IMG/VR virus record: IMGVR_UViG_3300028287_000004
Span: 1-58,576 of that record
DNA from: a virus
Taxonomy: Duplodnaviria > Caudoviricetes
DNA: 58,576 nt
Strand: one strand, 5' to 3'
This document shows positions 379 through 51,718 of the stretch, piece by piece (within the stretch, counting starts at the first letter, position 1; every line of letters begins with the position of its first letter). The position numbers and the translations under genes are program-made. Under the pieces are notes generated by a model. That model was given only the letters and a program-made list of their open reading frames with translations. It did not search any database and was not told the DNA's origin.

Positions 379-609
379 ATGATGCGTATTATAGATGACA
401 AAGATAAATTATATGAAGATGTAAAGCACGTATTCAAGTGGAATGATTCACAAGTCGAAGCTGCCGTAGCTCCACTAATCAATCGTTGGAACTGGCATGG
501 TATGCACAAAGATGAAGTTCCAACTAAAAAGAAACGTGTAACTAAAACCACAAAAAAAGCCCCTACTAAGAAAGCAGGAGCTAAAACTAAAGCAAAAAAG
601 AATTCATAA
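379..609 (+). CDS. Hypothetical protein with Lys-rich C-terminal tail
   Basis: Part of ORF 331..609; more plausible start at MMRII; tail KKKRVTKTTKKAPTKKAGAKTKAKK. Confidence 0.6.
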   Translation: MMRIIDDKDKLYEDVKHVFKWNDSQVEAAVAPLINRWNWHGMHKDEVPTKKKRVTKTTKKAPTKKAGAKTKAKKNS

Positions 610-1041
610 CTTGTTTCTTAAATCGTCAAGATACTCACTGAGTATCTTAGAACTACCTATTCTGACGTTGATGATACCGTTATAGTATTCATCCGTCTCT
701 AACACTCTACGATCAAATTGTTCTTTAGCTTCCATGTAGCTTAAAGCACCACGACTCGGACAGTAGTGTAAAATCTCCCTAGTAAACATTTCAGGGCCCA
801 ATCTTTCAACATCTGCATTCAGATGGTCAGAAGAACCCCAGTATGTACGCCAATCAGATTCCTTGGTGCCACGTCTTTTGTTCTTACGTCCCTTTAGAGG
901 TGGTTTCGTGGTCTTAAATTTTGCTAATTTCTTACCTACGTATTTCCTGTTATCCTCAAGATTCGTAATCAGATATACAAATCCCTCAACATCATCTGGT
1001 AATTCATTAACTATTTCGTTATTATATGTCCAATCACTCAT
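604..1041 (-). CDS. Stand-alone GIY-YIG family nuclease (Seg-like catalytic domain)
   Basis: GFVYLITN...KYVGKK (GIY-YIG motif), YWGSS, Glu in MEAKEQF, YYN; 145 aa with no separate DNA-binding domain. Confidence 0.8.
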   Translation of the reverse strand: MSDWTYNNEIVNELPDDVEGFVYLITNLEDNRKYVGKKLAKFKTTKPPLKGRKNKRRGTKESDWRTYWGSSDHLNADVERLGPEMFTREILHYCPSRGALSYMEAKEQFDRRVLETDEYYNGIINVRIGSSKILSEYLDDLRNKL

Positions 1042-1177: not shown

Positions 1178-1185
1178 TATTTATA
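1178..1185 (-). promoter_or_regulatory. T4-type late promoter TATAAATA upstream of the GIY-YIG gene
   Basis: Exact TATAAATA on the minus strand. Confidence 0.55.
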
Positions 1186-1189
1186 TATG

Positions 1190-1615
1190 CCTGCGGCTAA
1201 GCCACAATTGCCCTGTTGCCAGGACAACTGCAAAAAATTATGGATACATGCCATAGCTTCATCGCCTCTGTTTATGAGCTAGTAGCCAGAAACTACGGGG
1301 TCGGTTGGCGATTCCCCCTTCACTCAGTACTGCGTCTTTCGACCCAACGGCACCTAATAATGTCTAAACAGACAGAACATTATGTAAGTCGATAGTGTTA
1401 TAGTAACCTATCATCGGTTATAAAATTGTAAAACTGGTCAACCACGAACCTTTAGAGCCGTGGCTGTTATGTGTTATGAATACTCTTTTTTGTGGTTAAC
1501 GAGAAGATTGCGGGAATTCATCCCCACTAGTCCAACGGCAACAGTATCTTTAAATACTGGCAGATTCAATCCCGAGTTGGCAACCCAACTAACAGTTCCA
1601 CTATGTCTGATATAT
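1190..1615 (-). ncRNA. Candidate large structured non-coding RNA (family not recognised)
   Basis: No ORF of 60 aa or more; higher GC than flanks; about 10 consecutive hairpins with G-U pairs and GAAA/GCAA tetraloops on the minus strand. Confidence 0.7.
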
Positions 1616-1715: not shown

Positions 1716-1946
1716 TTAGAGTATTGGCACACCTGCCTGTTTACTCATTTCATAGTTGTCTTTTATAATATCATTAATGTGAGCAATGTGCCCAACTGGC
1801 ATATCATGGAGTTCAGAAATACTTACCCCACCTCTCATATACCAAGTTAACTTTAACATATTCTTGTGTACGTTGTCAAGCTCTTTTTTGTATTTTTCTG
1901 TTTTTTCTTGAATTTCTGCTGGCGATGCTGTAATTAACCAGCCATG
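1716..1946 (-). CDS. gp51-like baseplate hub assembly protein; -1 frame extension of gp26 (or 47 aa from ATG 1859)
   Basis: Hand translation HGWLITASPAEIQEKTEKYKKELDNVHKNMLKLTWYMRGGVSISELHDMPVGHIAHINDIIKDNYEMSKQAGVPIL*; WYMRGG..S.SE..DMP pattern and position right after gp26; absent from the ORF track. Confidence 0.75.
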   Translation of the reverse strand, partial: HGWLITASPAEIQEKTEKYKKELDNVHKNMLKLTWYMRGGVSISELHDMPVGHIAHINDIIKDNYEMSKQAGVPIL

Positions 1947-2785
1947 AAAAAATTTACAGGGTTGACCTCCAGAGCAACCTCGCCTTTATGATCACATTCT
2001 GGGCATACAAACGCAAATGTGGTCGCATCTTTGGGCTTTTTAGACAATTCTTTGACTTTTGCATCAATTTCGTCTACTATTTTTGTTGGAATGTTGCTTA
2101 GGAACTCCATAATCGAATCATAATCATTTACATTTCCTTCTGGAGTTTCGATGTAACTGATTGTGTTTGCTAACAAATCTACGTTATGTTCTGCAATCTT
2201 TCTAAAACTTCCGTAGAATCTTCTTGCTAGTTCAGCTTCGTCAGTGTCCTCATTCTCTTCATTCGCTACACTATTCTGAATATGTTGAACGATTCGTTTT
2301 TGCTCAACATCAATTAGTGCTAATCTTGTGATAGCTTCTACACTTGGTGGACGAATATGAATTTTAACTTCATCGAATTCAACTGGTGCAACATGTTCAA
2401 TATCTGGGAACTTGTTTAAGATATAATTTATATCAATATTGAAGTCACTTACTTCCTCACAATTCGTACATTTATGTGCATGTGTCAATTCACGTCCGTA
2501 TGTTGCATATTGTATAGCAAGATATAATGCTTCCATATCAATGTTGCACATTGTTCTAGGATTTGGTATATCTGGACAGCAACTCTTTGCGATATTGATT
2601 AGTGCTTCGCCATTAAGAAGTTCATCTGGGTTCTTCATAGTAATTTCGTCTACTGCCGTCATAGGCAATACCCCAACTTCTTCTAGTAGTGTGGTGCCCC
2701 ATTCTGGGTTAAATTTACCACCTGTTGGTAGTTTTATATAAATCCCTGGTTTTCTGAAATATTTTGCTAGTGGGTTTGTGTTCAT
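1934..2785 (-). CDS. Baseplate hub subunit / tail assembly chaperone, T4 gp26-like
   Basis: NPLAKYFRKPGIYIKLPTGG start, two CxxC motifs (CTNC, CPEC), C-terminal NFF; start at ATG 2785 after SD AGAGG. Confidence 0.8.
   Translation of the reverse strand: MNTNPLAKYFRKPGIYIKLPTGGKFNPEWGTTLLEEVGVLPMTAVDEITMKNPDELLNGEALINIAKSCCPDIPNPRTMCNIDMEALYLAIQYATYGRELTHAHKCTNCEEVSDFNIDINYILNKFPDIEHVAPVEFDEVKIHIRPPSVEAITRLALIDVEQKRIVQHIQNSVANEENEDTDEAELARRFYGSFRKIAEHNVDLLANTISYIETPEGNVNDYDSIMEFLSNIPTKIVDEIDAKVKELSKKPKDATTFAFVCPECDHKGEVALEVNPVNFFMAG
1946..1955 (-). promoter_or_regulatory. Putative -1 ribosomal frameshift site (A AAT TTT / T TTT TTC)
   Basis: In-frame X XXY YYZ heptamers 3-4 codons before the gp26 stop; the -1 frame is open for 76 codons. 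Confidence 0.65.
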
Positions 2786-2798
2786 TTTTTCGCCTCTT

Positions 2799-2826
2799 GA
2801 TAAATACAACAATACGAAGTATTTAT
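2799..2826. promoter_or_regulatory. Overlapping divergent late promoters (GATAAATA + at 2799; CATAAATA - at 2819-2826)
   Basis: Motifs lie between the divergent gp26 and tape-measure genes. Confidence 0.6.
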
Positions 2827-2884: not shown

Positions 2885-5404
2885 ATGGCAGAAGATGTAA
2901 TTATTCAGGGTTTTGGTAGTGACCGAAGTTTTCCGGACTTTGCTACCGAAGCGACCCAAAAAGGAATTATGCAAGAAGCAGGAAAGCATAGTAATGCTTT
3001 TGCGCAGATGGTTAGGTTACTTAGCGCCCAAGCCGCAGGTCAGAAAATCTCACAGAACGAATATAAAGAGATACAACAGGAACTACGTAACAATAGAAAA
3101 GCTACGGATGCTCTTAAAAAACAAAATGATAGTAACGATAACAAAACTAGAAAACAAACTGATGATGCATTACAAGAGGATCAAAAACAAACAAGTATTT
3201 TTAAGAAACTACTGATTGCATCAGTTGAACGTACTCAACTTTCTGCAAAGCAATTCAAAGAAGAAATTAAGAATGATAAGAGAATGCAAGAATTGATGAA
3301 AGACGGAATGTCTTCTGACTCTGCTGGTATCATGTCAAAATTAGAAGGATTTGGATCAGTCATTAGTTCAGTAGGTGGTAAACTTGCACCATTGGCAGGT
3401 ATGGTAACAGCCGCCGCAGGTGCGGTTACCGGTATCAATGCTTATATGAAAGCACAAGCACAAGATAGATTTAATCTTGCACAAGAATTAAGACAAAGCG
3501 GTCTTGCTGCTGGATTAAATTCATCACAAGCAAGTTTAACCTCATTTGCTGCGACTGTGCGAGAAAATAACTTTACTCTTGGCGAAGCCGCAGAATTTAC
3601 ACAACGTTTTGCAAATTCAGTTGGTGTTCTTGGAGTAAAGAGTTCTCTTGAATTCGTAAACTCACTAGCATATGCAGGCGAAGGCGGCGCAGATATGATG
3701 CGTAAGTTTGGTATGGAATTCGGTGAAGTAGCAAATGTAGCTGGTACTTACTTAGACAGTGTAAGAAATCTAGGCATGCTTGACAGAATGAATGGACAAC
3801 AGTTGCGAAGTAATATGGATGACTTTATGAGTACTGTAGTATCTACATCCAATGTTATGAAGATTAATATGGAAGATGCGGCAAAGATGATTTCTGATAC
3901 TTTGGGTAGAACAGATATATCTGCATTACTTGCTACTATGGATCCACAAAGAGCTGCACAAGTGCAAGAAGTGGTTGGTATGGCTGGCGGTATGGATAAT
4001 CCACTCGGTGAGGCACTTGCTATGAGACTTGCGGCAGGTTCACAGGGTGAATTTCAGATGACATCGCAATTTGCAGACTTAATGTCAAGTCCTATTACTG
4101 CATCCATCATGCCATTAGTTGAACAACTTGCAACATCAGCAGAACAAGGTGGGGTCAGTGGATTCCAGAGTGCGTTAGCAGGATCACGTGGTGATTTTCA
4201 GTCAGCGATAGATGGTGCTAGTAGAGAATTGATACTAAGTGGCGATCAAATGGGACAGGCAATGATTTCGTCATTTGCTAAACTATTAGGAACTGTTGAA
4301 GATGCAGATGCAGGACGTCAACCTTTATCAGGTGATGATGTTGCAACTTTAGGATCAATAGAAGCAAGTAGACAGTTTGCACTTGCATTAGAGGGTGTCA
4401 ATAATGCATTTATTGAGAATGCAGATTTAGAAAATAATTTAGGAAAACTTAATACAGCTAGTATAACAATGTCAGGATCAATAGAACGTTCTGGTACTGC
4501 AATCGCACAACATTCTGAGGCGGTTATTGGTGTGACTACCGGACTTCAAGCTATTGTGCAAGACATAGCTTCAGGCGGAATTGATATGGTTGGTAGTGTA
4601 TTCGCGGCAGTGAGTGATGACAGTGCAGATTCGCTGGCAAACGTAATACAAATGCGAAAAGTGGTTGAAGATACATTTGGCGCAACATCACTAGAAGCGA
4701 TTTCTAAACCAATTCTAGATCAATTAGAAACGGTTGAAAGATTTCAGAAACGAAGTGAAGAGAATCCTACATTGTTTAATAGAAATAGTGTGCAATTTGC
4801 GCAACGTGACTTATTTAGAATGATTGATGAACTTAGTGAAACGAATCCAGAACAAGCAGAATCATTGCTTAGAGGCTCAGGCTTAGAAAACTTTGCAAGG
4901 ACTGGAGAGACTATTGCATACGATCCTACTATATTGGCACAACAAGGAGTGATGCAAAATAATATGCCTATAACAGCATACGATGAACAAGGTGGGTATA
5001 TGCTACAAGGTGGCGGCAGAATGAAAACTCGACAAGAGACTGCGTTAGAAGTCCGTTCTGCGTTAGAATCAATATCTGGTGATCTTGGTACTGACTTTGT
5101 TAGAAATGCATTTACTGCATTAAGTACTGGTAGTGGCTCCAACCTTCTTGATACTGTAGGTTTTGAAAAAGAAAATGATACCTTTACTACAGAAGAACAA
5201 TCTATGATTACTACAATCGTAGAACAGATGAACGCTAATAACTTAATTAATCAAGAAAATATGCAACGATTAATAAACTCGATTGAATCTGATACTGGTA
5301 GAAGCGTGTTTGATTGGGCAGGTGCATCAGAAGAAGACAAAGCGCAACAGAGAGCATTGTTATCTACTATGAATCAACTACTTCAATCATTGAATAGTAA
5401 TTAA
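2885..5404 (+). CDS. Probable tape measure protein
   Basis: ~840 aa, Ala/Gly/Met/Gln-rich, helical character, central hydrophobic stretch; adjacent to gp26/gp51. Confidence 0.65.
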   Translation: MAEDVIIQGFGSDRSFPDFATEATQKGIMQEAGKHSNAFAQMVRLLSAQAAGQKISQNEYKEIQQELRNNRKATDALKKQNDSNDNKTRKQTDDALQEDQKQTSIFKKLLIASVERTQLSAKQFKEEIKNDKRMQELMKDGMSSDSAGIMSKLEGFGSVISSVGGKLAPLAGMVTAAAGAVTGINAYMKAQAQDRFNLAQELRQSGLAAGLNSSQASLTSFAATVRENNFTLGEAAEFTQRFANSVGVLGVKSSLEFVNSLAYAGEGGADMMRKFGMEFGEVANVAGTYLDSVRNLGMLDRMNGQQLRSNMDDFMSTVVSTSNVMKINMEDAAKMISDTLGRTDISALLATMDPQRAAQVQEVVGMAGGMDNPLGEALAMRLAAGSQGEFQMTSQFADLMSSPITASIMPLVEQLATSAEQGGVSGFQSALAGSRGDFQSAIDGASRELILSGDQMGQAMISSFAKLLGTVEDADAGRQPLSGDDVATLGSIEASRQFALALEGVNNAFIENADLENNLGKLNTASITMSGSIERSGTAIAQHSEAVIGVTTGLQAIVQDIASGGIDMVGSVFAAVSDDSADSLANVIQMRKVVEDTFGATSLEAISKPILDQLETVERFQKRSEENPTLFNRNSVQFAQRDLFRMIDELSETNPEQAESLLRGSGLENFARTGETIAYDPTILAQQGVMQNNMPITAYDEQGGYMLQGGGRMKTRQETALEVRSALESISGDLGTDFVRNAFTALSTGSGSNLLDTVGFEKENDTFTTEEQSMITTIVEQMNANNLINQENMQRLINSIESDTGRSVFDWAGASEEDKAQQRALLSTMNQLLQSLNSN

Positions 5405-7151: not shown

Positions 7152-7154
7152 ATA
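7147..7154 (+). promoter_or_regulatory. Late promoter TATAAATA overlapping the portal stop codon
   Basis: Exact motif, 5 nt before the next ATG. Confidence 0.7.
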
Positions 7155-7159
7155 CTACT

Positions 7160-7381
7160 ATGAGATATTCAGATTTAACAGAAAACTATTCTCCAGACGA
7201 GGATAATCATAATAGTAGAGAGATAGATGATACCCGTAAGGATCGTCTAACTCTTGTACACCTATCTAAACTGCGTAAAATTCGTGAATACCGTAAGTAT
7301 CAAGACGGTGTTAAATCACAGCAAGTACAACGTCAATATAAAGGCGGCGGCGATGAAAGCGGCGGCGATATGGAGCTATAG
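7160..7381 (+). CDS. Small head-module protein
   Basis: 73 aa between portal and core genes, with its own late promoter. Confidence 0.7.
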   Translation: MRYSDLTENYSPDEDNHNSREIDDTRKDRLTLVHLSKLRKIREYRKYQDGVKSQQVQRQYKGGGDESGGDMEL

Positions 7382-7442
7382 TCTCTATTAAGTAGTAAGT
7401 TTTACTATTTACGTCACATACTAAATATCTCTACGACAATGA

Positions 7443-7468
7443 AACGGCTAAAAAGTAGCCGTTTTTTT
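7443..7468 (+). terminator. Intrinsic terminator
   Basis: AAACGGCTA-AAAAG-TAGCCGTTT followed by a T run. Confidence 0.75.
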
Positions 7469-7497
7469 GCATTTCCCTATTATACACTATCTTTACC

Positions 7498-7505
7498 TAT
7501 AAATA
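7498..7505 (+). promoter_or_regulatory. Late promoter TATAAATA for the prohead/capsid operon
   Basis: Exact motif upstream of SD TAAGGAG. Confidence 0.75.
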
Positions 7506-7575
7506 CTTTTGAAACAAAGAGTGTTTCTACAACCGCCACAGAAAGCAGTGGCTTTTTAGATAAGGAGACATTAAT

Positions 7576-50589: not shown

Positions 50590-50653
50590 ACAAAAACTAA
50601 AGCTAATATAAATCTAACATGGCTAACATAGGCTAATATAAAGGAAAACTACA
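50590..50653 (+). promoter_or_regulatory. Repetitive A-rich gp32 leader (putative autogenous translational operator)
   Basis: AGCTAATATA / GGCTAACATA / GGCTAATATA repeats directly before the SD. Confidence 0.6.
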
Positions 50654-51718
50654 ATGGCTACACTAGCAGAAATCCGTGCAAAACTGCTTGCACAAGAAAA
50701 CAAAGCAGAAAATAATTCAAATCAATCACGCGGCTCAGATGCACTATACCCGTTCTGGAATATGGACAACGATAGTACAGCGACAATCCGCTTTCTCCCA
50801 GACTCATCAGCAGACAATGTATTCTTTTGGCGTGAGCGTCAAGTAATCAAAATGTCTTTTGCAGGTATTGTAGGTGGTGAACAAAAACCTATTCAAGTAC
50901 AAGTTCCATGTATCGAAATGTGGGGCGACACATGTCCTATTCATGCAGAAATTCGTCCATGGTTCAAAGACCCATCTATGGAAGACTTGGCTCGTAAGTA
51001 CTGGAAGAAGCGTTCTTACATATTTCAAGGTTTTGTAGTACAAGACCCGATGAATGAAGAATCACCAGAGAATCCTATCCGTCGTTTCGTGATCGGTCCA
51101 CAAATCTTTAAGTTGTTGAAATCAGCATTGATGGATCCAGATATGGAAAATCTACCAACTGATTATGATGCAGGTACAGATTTTCGACTAGTCAAAACAC
51201 AAAAAGGACAGTATGCAGATTACGCTACATCTAATTGGGCTCGCAAAGAACGCTCACTGAATGAAGAAGAACGTTCAGCAATCGAAGCCCATGGTCTTTC
51301 AGACTTGAATGATTTCATGCCAAAGCGTCCTACACAAGACGAAGTGAATGTTATCATGGAGATGTTCGAAGCATCTGTTGATGGTGAACTATATGATCCA
51401 ATGCGTTGGGGCAACTTCTTCAAGCCATATGGTTTGGATGTACCAGAAGGTGCAGAGCCTAACAATTCATCAAGTTCATCAGCATCGAAAGCAACACCAG
51501 CTCCTCGTCCAGCTCCAACAGCTCCTGCAGCAGCACCTGTAGCGGCTCAAGCGGCAGTAGAGGATGATATTCCATTTAAATTAGATGCAGAAGCCGCCTT
51601 AGCAGAACGTAATAGTGCTTCACAAATGGTAGGCGCAGCAAAAGCATCAGCAGATACTGGCGCAGGAAAAGATGCATCAGACATTCTTGCAATGATCCGT
51701 TCTCGTAAATCAGACTAA
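50654..51718 (+). CDS. Single-stranded DNA-binding protein, T4 gp32-like
   Basis: ATIRFLPD, C-x6-CP, KYWKKRSY, G.QIFK, YD.GTDFRLVK, Y.DY.TS.W. Confidence 0.9.
   Translation: MATLAEIRAKLLAQENKAENNSNQSRGSDALYPFWNMDNDSTATIRFLPDSSADNVFFWRERQVIKMSFAGIVGGEQKPIQVQVPCIEMWGDTCPIHAEIRPWFKDPSMEDLARKYWKKRSYIFQGFVVQDPMNEESPENPIRRFVIGPQIFKLLKSALMDPDMENLPTDYDAGTDFRLVKTQKGQYADYATSNWARKERSLNEEERSAIEAHGLSDLNDFMPKRPTQDEVNVIMEMFEASVDGELYDPMRWGNFFKPYGLDVPEGAEPNNSSSSSASKATPAPRPAPTAPAAAPVAAQAAVEDDIPFKLDAEAALAERNSASQMVGAAKASADTGAGKDASDILAMIRSRKSD

Follow-up and report, generated by a model that had tools for sequence, protein, structure and literature searches.

Positions 1203-1606 (minus strand) of the window, that is, the whole 58,576-nt stretch of viral DNA that was analysed, encode a structured RNA of about 404 nt, which folds into about 16 helices in two domains tied together by three long-range pairings and matches no catalogued RNA family. 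We propose, with a confidence of around 80%, that it is a gene for a stable RNA acting in trans, and that it founds a previously uncatalogued RNA family that is a core gene of a clade of uncultured, mostly marine, jumbo myoviruses related to PA5oct and Atu_ph07. A 2023 catalogue of 10,006 unnamed candidate structured RNAs from IMG/VR (PMC10690425) may, however, already list it.

Conserved structure of the RNA

The preliminary description had proposed a highly structured RNA on the minus strand, in the longest non-coding gap of the window. In a program-made list of open reading frames, 1042-1933 was indeed the longest stretch without an ORF of 80 aa or more, followed by one of about 424 nt at 7152-7575, and all the sequence features were found where they had been described. 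Folding energy alone did not exceed chance, as the minus strand showed an MFE of -119.3 kcal/mol with a z-score of -1.23 and 12 of 100 shuffles folded as well, and the plus strand gave a z-score of -0.97. By contrast, the comparison of 102 homologous sequences was decisive. In a model of 16 helices, 93.4% of 9977 cells form standard pairs, against 36-45% when the partners are slid, and 54 of 99 pairs change on both sides, against 16-22 when slid. The covariation score was 0.335, against 0.04-0.09 for slid partners, and 0 of 500 shuffles reached it, although the shuffle control ignores phylogeny and the slid control is the safer one.

The asymmetry in non-Watson-Crick positions pointed out in the preliminary description was also confirmed. 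The window sequence has 11 G-U pairs in the model, and across the alignment 1016 G-U cells were counted against 88 A-C cells, with 93.4% standard pairs when read as sense and 84.1% when read as antisense, which indicates that the minus strand is the RNA strand. Indel runs were mostly not in multiples of three (210, 839 and 559 by length mod 3). These data support that selection acts on the structure of a non-coding RNA.

The conserved core starts with ACAUAGUGG at 1606 and ends with the invariant GGGCAAUUGUG at about 1203, and a subclade-specific tail runs on to about 1186. The 5' domain (1492-1601) is closed by GUGG (1598-1601) with CCAC (1492-1495) and by CGGGA (1570-1574) with UCUCG (1500-1504). 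More than 99% of the cells are paired in these two helices, but both are almost invariant, so they are neither proven nor refuted. Hairpin H1 (1575-1590, AGUUGG/CCAACU) has 4 of 6 pairs changed on both sides and 99.0% of cells paired, and the domain encloses a variable hairpin, Pb (1534-1565), whose base has 4 of 6 pairs changed on both sides, as well as hairpin H3 (1510-1527), with 4 of 6 pairs changed on both sides and 98.4% paired. The loop of H3, GAAU (1516-1519), forms the first long-range pairing, PKa, with AUUC (1478-1481), in which 2 of 4 pairs change on both sides and 99.8% of cells are paired. Hairpin H6 (1439-1466), with the conserved loop CUCUAAAGG, has 8 of 9 pairs changed on both sides, and hairpin H9 (1391-1412) has 5 of 8, with 98.6% paired.

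Hairpin Px (1352-1389) has 7 of 10 pairs changed on both sides, but only 74.6% of its cells are paired because the inner register differs between subclades in the MAFFT alignment. Its 17-nt loop carries the 5' strand of the second long-range pairing, PKb, between UCUGUUU (1366-1372) and AAACAGA (1267-1273), with 5 of 7 pairs changed on both sides and 94.1% paired. The third one, PKc, joins GUUGG (1344-1348) to CCAAC (1304-1308), which lies in the loop of H7, and is 100% paired, with G-C in 67 and A-U in 35 sequences at the variable pair. A hairpin capped by a GNRA loop (1334-1343, GUC-GAAA-GAC) has 2 of 3 pairs changed on both sides and 100% of cells paired, its loops being GAAA, GCAA or GUAA. 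Helix H5 (1322-1326/1275-1279) encloses H7 (1315-1318/1297-1300) and H4 (1292-1296/1282-1286), in which 3 of 5, 2 of 4 and 3 of 5 pairs change on both sides, respectively, with 97-100% paired. The terminal 12-bp stem-loop Pt (1204-1231), whose 3' strand is invariant, has 4 of 12 pairs changed on both sides and 5 on one side, with 90% paired. The RNA also carries invariant single-stranded segments and loops.

Eight of the 12 hairpins of the preliminary description (1575-1590, 1510-1527, 1439-1466, 1391-1412, 1334-1343, 1297-1318, 1282-1296 and 1204-1231) were therefore confirmed with changes on both sides of pairs. The one at 1542-1559 is the tip of the variable hairpin whose base is supported, those at 1239-1255 and 1192-1206 are lineage-specific, and the TGTCT/AGACA hairpin at 1361-1374 is replaced by a pseudoknot, as those bases form the loop of Px and take part in PKb. 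The three long-range pairings, the wide spread of the family and the endonuclease slot beside the RNA had been missed. Of the two copies of UGCCGUUGG in the RNA, only the second is conserved in relatives. A closing helix between CAUAGU at the 5' end and AUUGUG near the 3' end is possible, but it conflicts with the covarying terminal stem and never varies, so it was left out. No supported pairing was found between the segment after PKb and the 3' tail, and a conserved GAUGA-type box after PKb looked K-turn-like by eye, without a partner strand being established.

Distribution and expression

In order to know how widely the RNA is conserved, a 3-sequence profile was searched with nhmmer, and it hit all 38 loci whose gp26-like protein is 52-72% identical (L005-L042) and none of 42 deeper loci (L043-L084). 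The element lies downstream of the gp26-like baseplate gene in all 38, and it was found in 91 viral and 119+ marine metagenome stretches, which gave 226 full-length copies and 101 distinct sequences. One complete 342,607-bp genome with terminal repeats has exactly one copy. Against the window, the RNA is more alike in nucleotides than the gp26-like gene in 9 of 9 whole-length comparisons, for example 91% against 72% for L005 and 84% against 69% for L007, although part of the extreme similarity among close relatives may come from endonuclease-driven gene conversion rather than selection.

A diverged form of about 330 nt was detected with nhmmer and a model of the RNA (R1) in 20 of the 42 deeper loci. 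Across both clades PKc keeps pairing in 24 of 24 representatives, with G-C, A-U, C-G and U-A all seen, and PKb is kept in the deep clade with unrelated complementary sequences at the same place. A test of own against swapped partners for PKb across clades separated poorly (mean 8.3 against 7.1 bp), because the sequences are AU-rich and many share the same helix, and it was not used as evidence. No match to the window RNA or the deep-clade RNA was found by blastn among 50,697 GenBank phage records. Whole-genome R1 searches of PA5oct, Atu_ph07, Melnitz and a 359-kb relative gave only E above 0.1; PA5oct has a 663-nt unannotated gap near its baseplate hub gene, but R1 found nothing there, no motif was seen by eye, and the neighbouring 150-aa ORF has no Pfam match.

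A hint of expression came from 16 RNA-labelled runs that contain part of the stretch. In 4 of 4 runs examined, from 4 marine studies, contigs cover the RNA, and one of them carries an adapter-like loose end at 1202. Transcription, strand and ends are not shown directly by these data, as they were assembled contigs, which may include DNA, and one 7.5-kb contig spans the whole region; parts of the flanking genes without cover in X5, X7 and X11 of this material say nothing about expression. An mdRNA-Seq study (PMC5069720) has no phage RNA. Four tandem promoter-like boxes CTAATAYA lie before the RNA on the minus strand (1611-1618, 1631-1638, 1664-1671 and 1706-1713), the first including TATAAATA at 1702-1709. 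The window has 8 matches to this box, 2 of them upstream of the gp32-like gene, and in relatives a box sits 7-10 nt before the conserved 5' end, as read by eye. It is inferred from this that the RNA is transcribed from up to four boxes, so that the conserved 5' end is set by initiation.

The neighbouring endonuclease slot

Upstream of the RNA (1716-2812, minus strand) lies the gp26-like baseplate hub gene (2812-1934; Pfam PF12322, E 1.7e-18) plus a -1 frame extension, with a frameshift signal, that is open to the stop at 1716-1718. On the other side, 604-1041 (minus strand) is a SegE-like GIY-YIG endonuclease gene of 145 aa (PF19835, E 2.8e-35). A second copy of TATAAATA at 1178-1185 (minus strand), between the RNA and this gene, is a possible promoter for the endonuclease alone, its function being inferred. 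The only terminator-like site on the minus strand in 550-2000 lies at 558-582, after the endonuclease gene, and is a consensus match only.

Among 106 distinct downstream contexts, the slot holds the GIY-YIG gene in 66, an unrelated PD-(D/E)XK nuclease (PF24608, about 180 aa) in 37 and neither in 3. For the window against L005, identity rises from 72% in gp26 to 91% in the RNA, 99% in the spacer and 98% in the nuclease, whereas for L003 the nuclease is only 82% identical against 90.5% for gp26. Both nuclease families are listed among homing endonucleases (PMC6083498), and in T4 free-standing endonucleases sit in intergenic regions between conserved genes, with segB targeting the tRNA region (PMC2988022). 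The small genes are thus best read as free-standing homing endonucleases that use this very conserved gene or its flank as a landing and cleavage site, two unrelated families competing for one site. Nevertheless, the near-universal presence of a nuclease gene beside the RNA is higher than usual for selfish endonucleases and could mean a functional link.

Nature of the RNA and alternative readings

No match to Rfam 15 (4227 models) was found at gathering scores over the whole window, and at E up to 10 there was only one chance snoRNA match on the wrong strand; no family recurred across 11 homologous loci. ARAGORN found no tRNA or tmRNA gene in 58,576 bases. Regarding the biochemical role, no function is demonstrated, and the ribozyme and protein-binding roles suggested in the preliminary description remain possible. 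The RNA subunit or scaffold of a protein-RNA particle is the option we tentatively prefer, although at less than even odds, an RNA-only higher-order assembly of the GOLLD/ROOL or pRNA kind is less likely, a ribozyme somewhat less still, and other roles together keep an appreciable share.

An unlikely alternative is that the RNA and the adjacent nuclease form one two-part system, in which the RNA would guide, scaffold or restrain interchangeable GIY-YIG or PD-(D/E)XK catalytic modules, loosely like omega-RNA with IscB/TnpB or an RNA antitoxin with a toxin. A nuclease gene on the same strand follows the RNA in 103 of 106 contexts of the window clade, and one precedes it in 16 of 21 deep-clade loci, the other 5 being cut by the contig end within about 260 nt, so that adjacency survives a change of gene order, which this reading would explain. 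In addition, the GIY-YIG protein is a bare nuclease domain, no terminator-like site separates it from the RNA, and the 3' tail of the RNA differs between subclades. However, a 77% identical GIY-YIG protein in Methylophilales phage Melnitz and homologues in hundreds of cyanophage records sit in other contexts without this RNA, two unrelated folds would each have to recognise the same RNA, three loci (L212, L244 and L268) keep an intact RNA with no nuclease next to it, and the nuclease phylogeny disagrees with its neighbours, as expected for a mobile gene. No repeat units of the type III antitoxin kind were found in 1042-1715, the only array lying at 1884-1908. The Rfam HEARO model does not match, the nucleases have no RuvC or HNH, and no guide segment or transposon ends were identified, although a guide segment remains open: the 5' end is invariant and the 3' tail differs between subclades, but no target is known.

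The remaining readings are very unlikely. A cis-acting leader controlling the endonuclease gene or the baseplate operon would suit the position of the RNA between two genes on the same strand without a terminator-like site before the nuclease, but in the deep clade the RNA lies downstream of the nuclease gene and converges on the gp26-like gene, the downstream gene differs between relatives (in L212 and L244 it is radical-SAM-like), a TATAAATA box separates RNA and nuclease, and 404 nt with three pseudoknots far exceed known leaders. For a replication-origin transcript, either of the ColE1 RNAII type suggested in the preliminary description or a T4 ori-type primer, there are promoter-like boxes and a folded RNA in a T4-like genome, where such transcripts probably occur. 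Nothing supports it, judging only from the composition of the region, where the cumulative GC skew simply follows gene orientation, and from conservation, which is in helices and loops, with compensatory change throughout, and not in a DNA unwinding element. A diverged group I or II intron, RNase P RNA or tmRNA is hinted at by the pseudoknotted core, the GNRA loops and the neighbouring endonuclease ORF. Against this, and besides the lack of Rfam and ARAGORN matches, there are no flanking exons, as the upstream frame ends at 1716-1718 and the genes beyond the nuclease are on the other strand, and only 3 nt (CGA) separate the 3' strands of PKc and H7, where a group I intron would be expected to have P8. 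The helix order does not seem to correspond to that of bacterial RNase P RNA either.

Large RNAs with several conserved pseudoknots are rare. As in phi29, where the pRNA probably acts in trans in virion assembly, a role in assembly could be imagined from the position in the baseplate/tail module, but this is pure speculation and no sequence or model similarity to pRNA was found. GOLLD and ROOL are likewise large, intricately folded phage RNAs of unknown function, and since GOLLD, ROOL and OLE form RNA-only multimers (bioRxiv 10.1101/2024.12.08.627333), the covarying loop pairings found here could be intermolecular. The Rfam models of GOLLD and ROOL do not match the RNA, which is shorter, has no tRNA genes in its 58.6-kb window, whereas those RNAs probably tend to lie near tRNAs, and is found in marine jumbo myoviruses.

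Genomic setting and recognition of the RNA

The window corresponds to an IMG/VR viral contig of 58,576 b, with a CheckV completeness of 16%. Its large terminase is 54.6% identical to that of Pseudomonas jumbo phage PA5oct and 52.6% identical to that of Agrobacterium phage Atu_ph07, and no cultured phage is closer. On the minus strand lies a gp26-like baseplate hub gene (2812-1934, Pfam PF12322), followed by a -1 frame that stays open to the stop at 1716-1718, and further on by a SegE-like GIY-YIG gene (1041-604, PF19835), and between them is the longest ORF-free stretch of the window. At the end of the gp26-like gene (1915-1955, minus strand) there is a conserved -1 frameshift-like signal, also found in loci L002-L042 and L051-L083 among the relatives, in which a U-rich slippery heptamer (AAAUUUU or UUUUUUC) lies a few codons before the stop and is followed by a GCUGG...CCAGC hairpin spanning the stop. 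The -1 frame encodes a conserved peptide of about 70 aa (WYMRGG motif) down to 1716, and in locus L055 the same peptide is a separate ORF with its own ATG. The U-run was visible in 47 of 49 sequence rows inspected, the two others being mis-anchored, and the arrangement resembles the tail-assembly-chaperone G/GT frameshift. On the plus strand, a 92-aa ORF (331-609) with a lysine-rich tail and no Pfam or PHROG match converges on the nuclease gene, and ORFs of similar size sit at the same place in relatives.

The hairpins listed in the preliminary description, the two TATAAATA boxes and the repeated UGCCGUUGG were all found to be present. Thermodynamics alone would not single the region out, as the minus strand showed a z of -1.23, with 12 of 100 shuffles folding as well, and the plus strand a z of -0.97. 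A search with the Rfam models gave nothing at gathering scores over the whole window, and nothing credible at E up to 10 over positions 1000-1950, and ARAGORN detected no tRNA or tmRNA.

Conservation and covariation

In order to know if the region is conserved, it was first compared with three close contigs, which align over 3 kb at 89-97% identity. In them, positions 1202-1400 and 1502-1900 are almost invariant, while two patches vary through paired substitutions. A profile of the gp26-like protein was then used to fetch 80 loci. A search of the relatives with nhmmer and the 3-sequence RNA alignment hit loci L002 and L003, and hit all 38 loci whose gp26-like protein is 52-72% identical, but none of the 42 deeper loci, and in every hit the RNA lies just downstream of the gp26-like gene. 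A DNA pattern taken from the most conserved part found 91 stretches in IMG/VR, and in all, 250 nhmmer hits gave 226 full-length copies and 101 distinct sequences. A complete 342,607-bp genome with terminal repeats carries one copy. Against the window, the RNA is more conserved in nucleotides than the gp26-like gene in 9 of 9 whole-length comparisons.

From stacked, compatible, covarying column pairs, and from the inspection of 33 representatives, we built a model of 99 pairs in 16 helices, including three crossing pairings. This model was evaluated on a MAFFT alignment of 102 sequences that was not fitted to it. Standard pairs were formed in 93.4% of the cells, in contrast to 36-45% when the partners were slid by 1-3 columns, 54 of the 99 pairs were changed on both sides, in contrast to 16-22 when slid, and the covariation score was 0.335, in contrast to 0.04-0.09 when slid. 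No shuffle of 500 reached the observed values, except for the count of further pair types. Strong support was obtained for the hairpins H1, H3, H6, H9 and Px, the base of the variable hairpin Pb, the GNRA hairpin, the helices H5, H7 and H4, and the terminal stem, whereas the two helices closing the 5' domain never vary, so they remain hypothetical. All three long-range pairings covary, with PKa joining the H3 loop to a downstream linker, PKb joining the Px loop to AAACAGA 95 nt away, and PKc joining GUUGG to CCAAC in the H7 loop, although covariation cannot tell intramolecular from intermolecular pairing. Within otherwise near-identical close relatives, positions 1340-1385 and 1425-1490 are hypervariable, with 14-17 differences per 100 nt, and coincide with the Px stem and with the linker that carries PKa, and they may be hot spots of recombination, or of selection for change, inside the RNA.

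The pairing counts settle the strand, with 1016 G-U cells against 88 A-C cells, and 93.4% of standard pairs when read as sense against 84.1% when read as antisense. Indels are mostly not multiples of three (210, 839 and 559 runs for length mod 3 = 0, 1 and 2, respectively), which argues against coding.

A covariance model of the 3' domain (R1) gave weak full-length hits in loci whose gp26-like protein is only 30-35% identical. A profile built from those hits found the element in 20 of 42 such loci at E of 0.001 or less, plus one short weak hit, and in this deeper clade the RNA is about 330 nt long. The pseudoknot core is kept. The variable PKc pair runs through G-C, A-U, C-G and U-A, pairing in 24 of 24 representatives from both clades, and PKb is formed by unrelated complementary sequences. 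The deep-clade version (for example at 4894-5212 of locus L052 and 3747-4076 of locus L055, on the minus strand of those loci) has two AGAUGAU-type boxes flanking its terminal hairpin, and a conserved loop, CUAACUUAAGG, resembling the H6 loop CUCUAAAGG of the window clade. In PA5oct, a 663-nt stretch without annotated genes lies near the baseplate hub gene (4529-5191 of locus L381, positions 76517-77179 of the record), and it contains hairpins but is not a detectable homologue of this RNA.

The endonuclease genes beside the RNA

The ORF after the RNA is a SegE-like GIY-YIG (PF19835) in some relatives and an unrelated PD-(D/E)XK endonuclease (PF24608) in others, so that one intergenic slot (604-1041 in the window, 4253-4798 in locus L031, and the region downstream of the RNA in locus L212) is filled by two unrelated endonuclease families. 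Over 106 distinct downstream contexts, obtained from 197 loci with at least 750 nt of flank, 66 have the GIY-YIG, 37 the PD-(D/E)XK and 3 neither, and two of those three have a radical-SAM-like gene instead. In the deep clade, 12 loci have the GIY-YIG and 4 the PD-(D/E)XK upstream of the RNA, and the remaining 5 are cut by the contig end. In this clade the RNA is on the strand opposite to the gp26-like gene and lies downstream of the nuclease gene, as in locus L055, where the nuclease is at 4502-4065 and the RNA at about 4060-3690. This excludes a 5' leader of the nuclease gene.

The nuclease has a history of its own. In the comparison of the window against locus L005, identity climbs from 72% (gp26-like) through 91% (RNA) to 99% (spacer) and 98% (nuclease), a gradient that points to recent transfer of the nuclease cassette, whereas against locus L003 the nuclease is 82% identical while the gp26-like gene is 90.5%. 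A 77% identical protein in Methylophilales phage Melnitz sits in another context with no such RNA. Together, these data fit free-standing homing endonucleases and co-conversion, as described for T4, where such genes occupy intergenic slots between conserved genes, and segB targets the tRNA region (PMC2988022). By contrast, the very high occupancy of the slot keeps a functional link between RNA and nuclease possible, although only as a minority reading.

Relation to known RNAs and signs of expression

No Rfam family matches the window or 11 homologous loci. The gene is not inside another gene, has no exons and lacks a P8-like element, so it is not a group I intron, and it has no repeats and no tRNA-like part. 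Its nearest analogues are functional, not homologous, and are the large ornate phage-associated RNAs GOLLD and ROOL and the omega-RNAs beside nucleases. Literature searches turned up no description of this element, but a screening of IMG/VR that lists 10,006 unnamed candidates (PMC10690425) may already include it. This is a real, widespread, strongly structured RNA gene of a new family in uncultured jumbo phages, flanked by endonuclease genes best interpreted as mobile, and the RNA probably acts in trans, in a biochemical role that is unresolved.

Regarding its expression, sixteen RNA-labelled runs contained 14-39% of the sampled words of positions 1000-2000, and in 4 of 4 runs whose contigs were aligned to the window, from 4 studies, contigs cover the RNA, one of them, of 643 nt, ending at 1202 in adapter-like letters. 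These are assembled contigs and may contain DNA, so transcription, strand and ends are hinted at by them, not shown. No terminator-like site follows the RNA, the only one on this strand being after the nuclease gene. Upstream of the RNA there are four CTAATAYA boxes, out of 8 in the window, and in relatives a box sits 7-10 nt before the conserved 5' end, as judged by eye, from which we infer that initiation sets the 5' end. Two more boxes, GCTAATATAAA, like the four upstream of the RNA, are located at 50603-50640 on the plus strand, preceding the gp32-like single-strand-binding protein gene (50654-51718), and this is possibly a clade-specific strong promoter motif.
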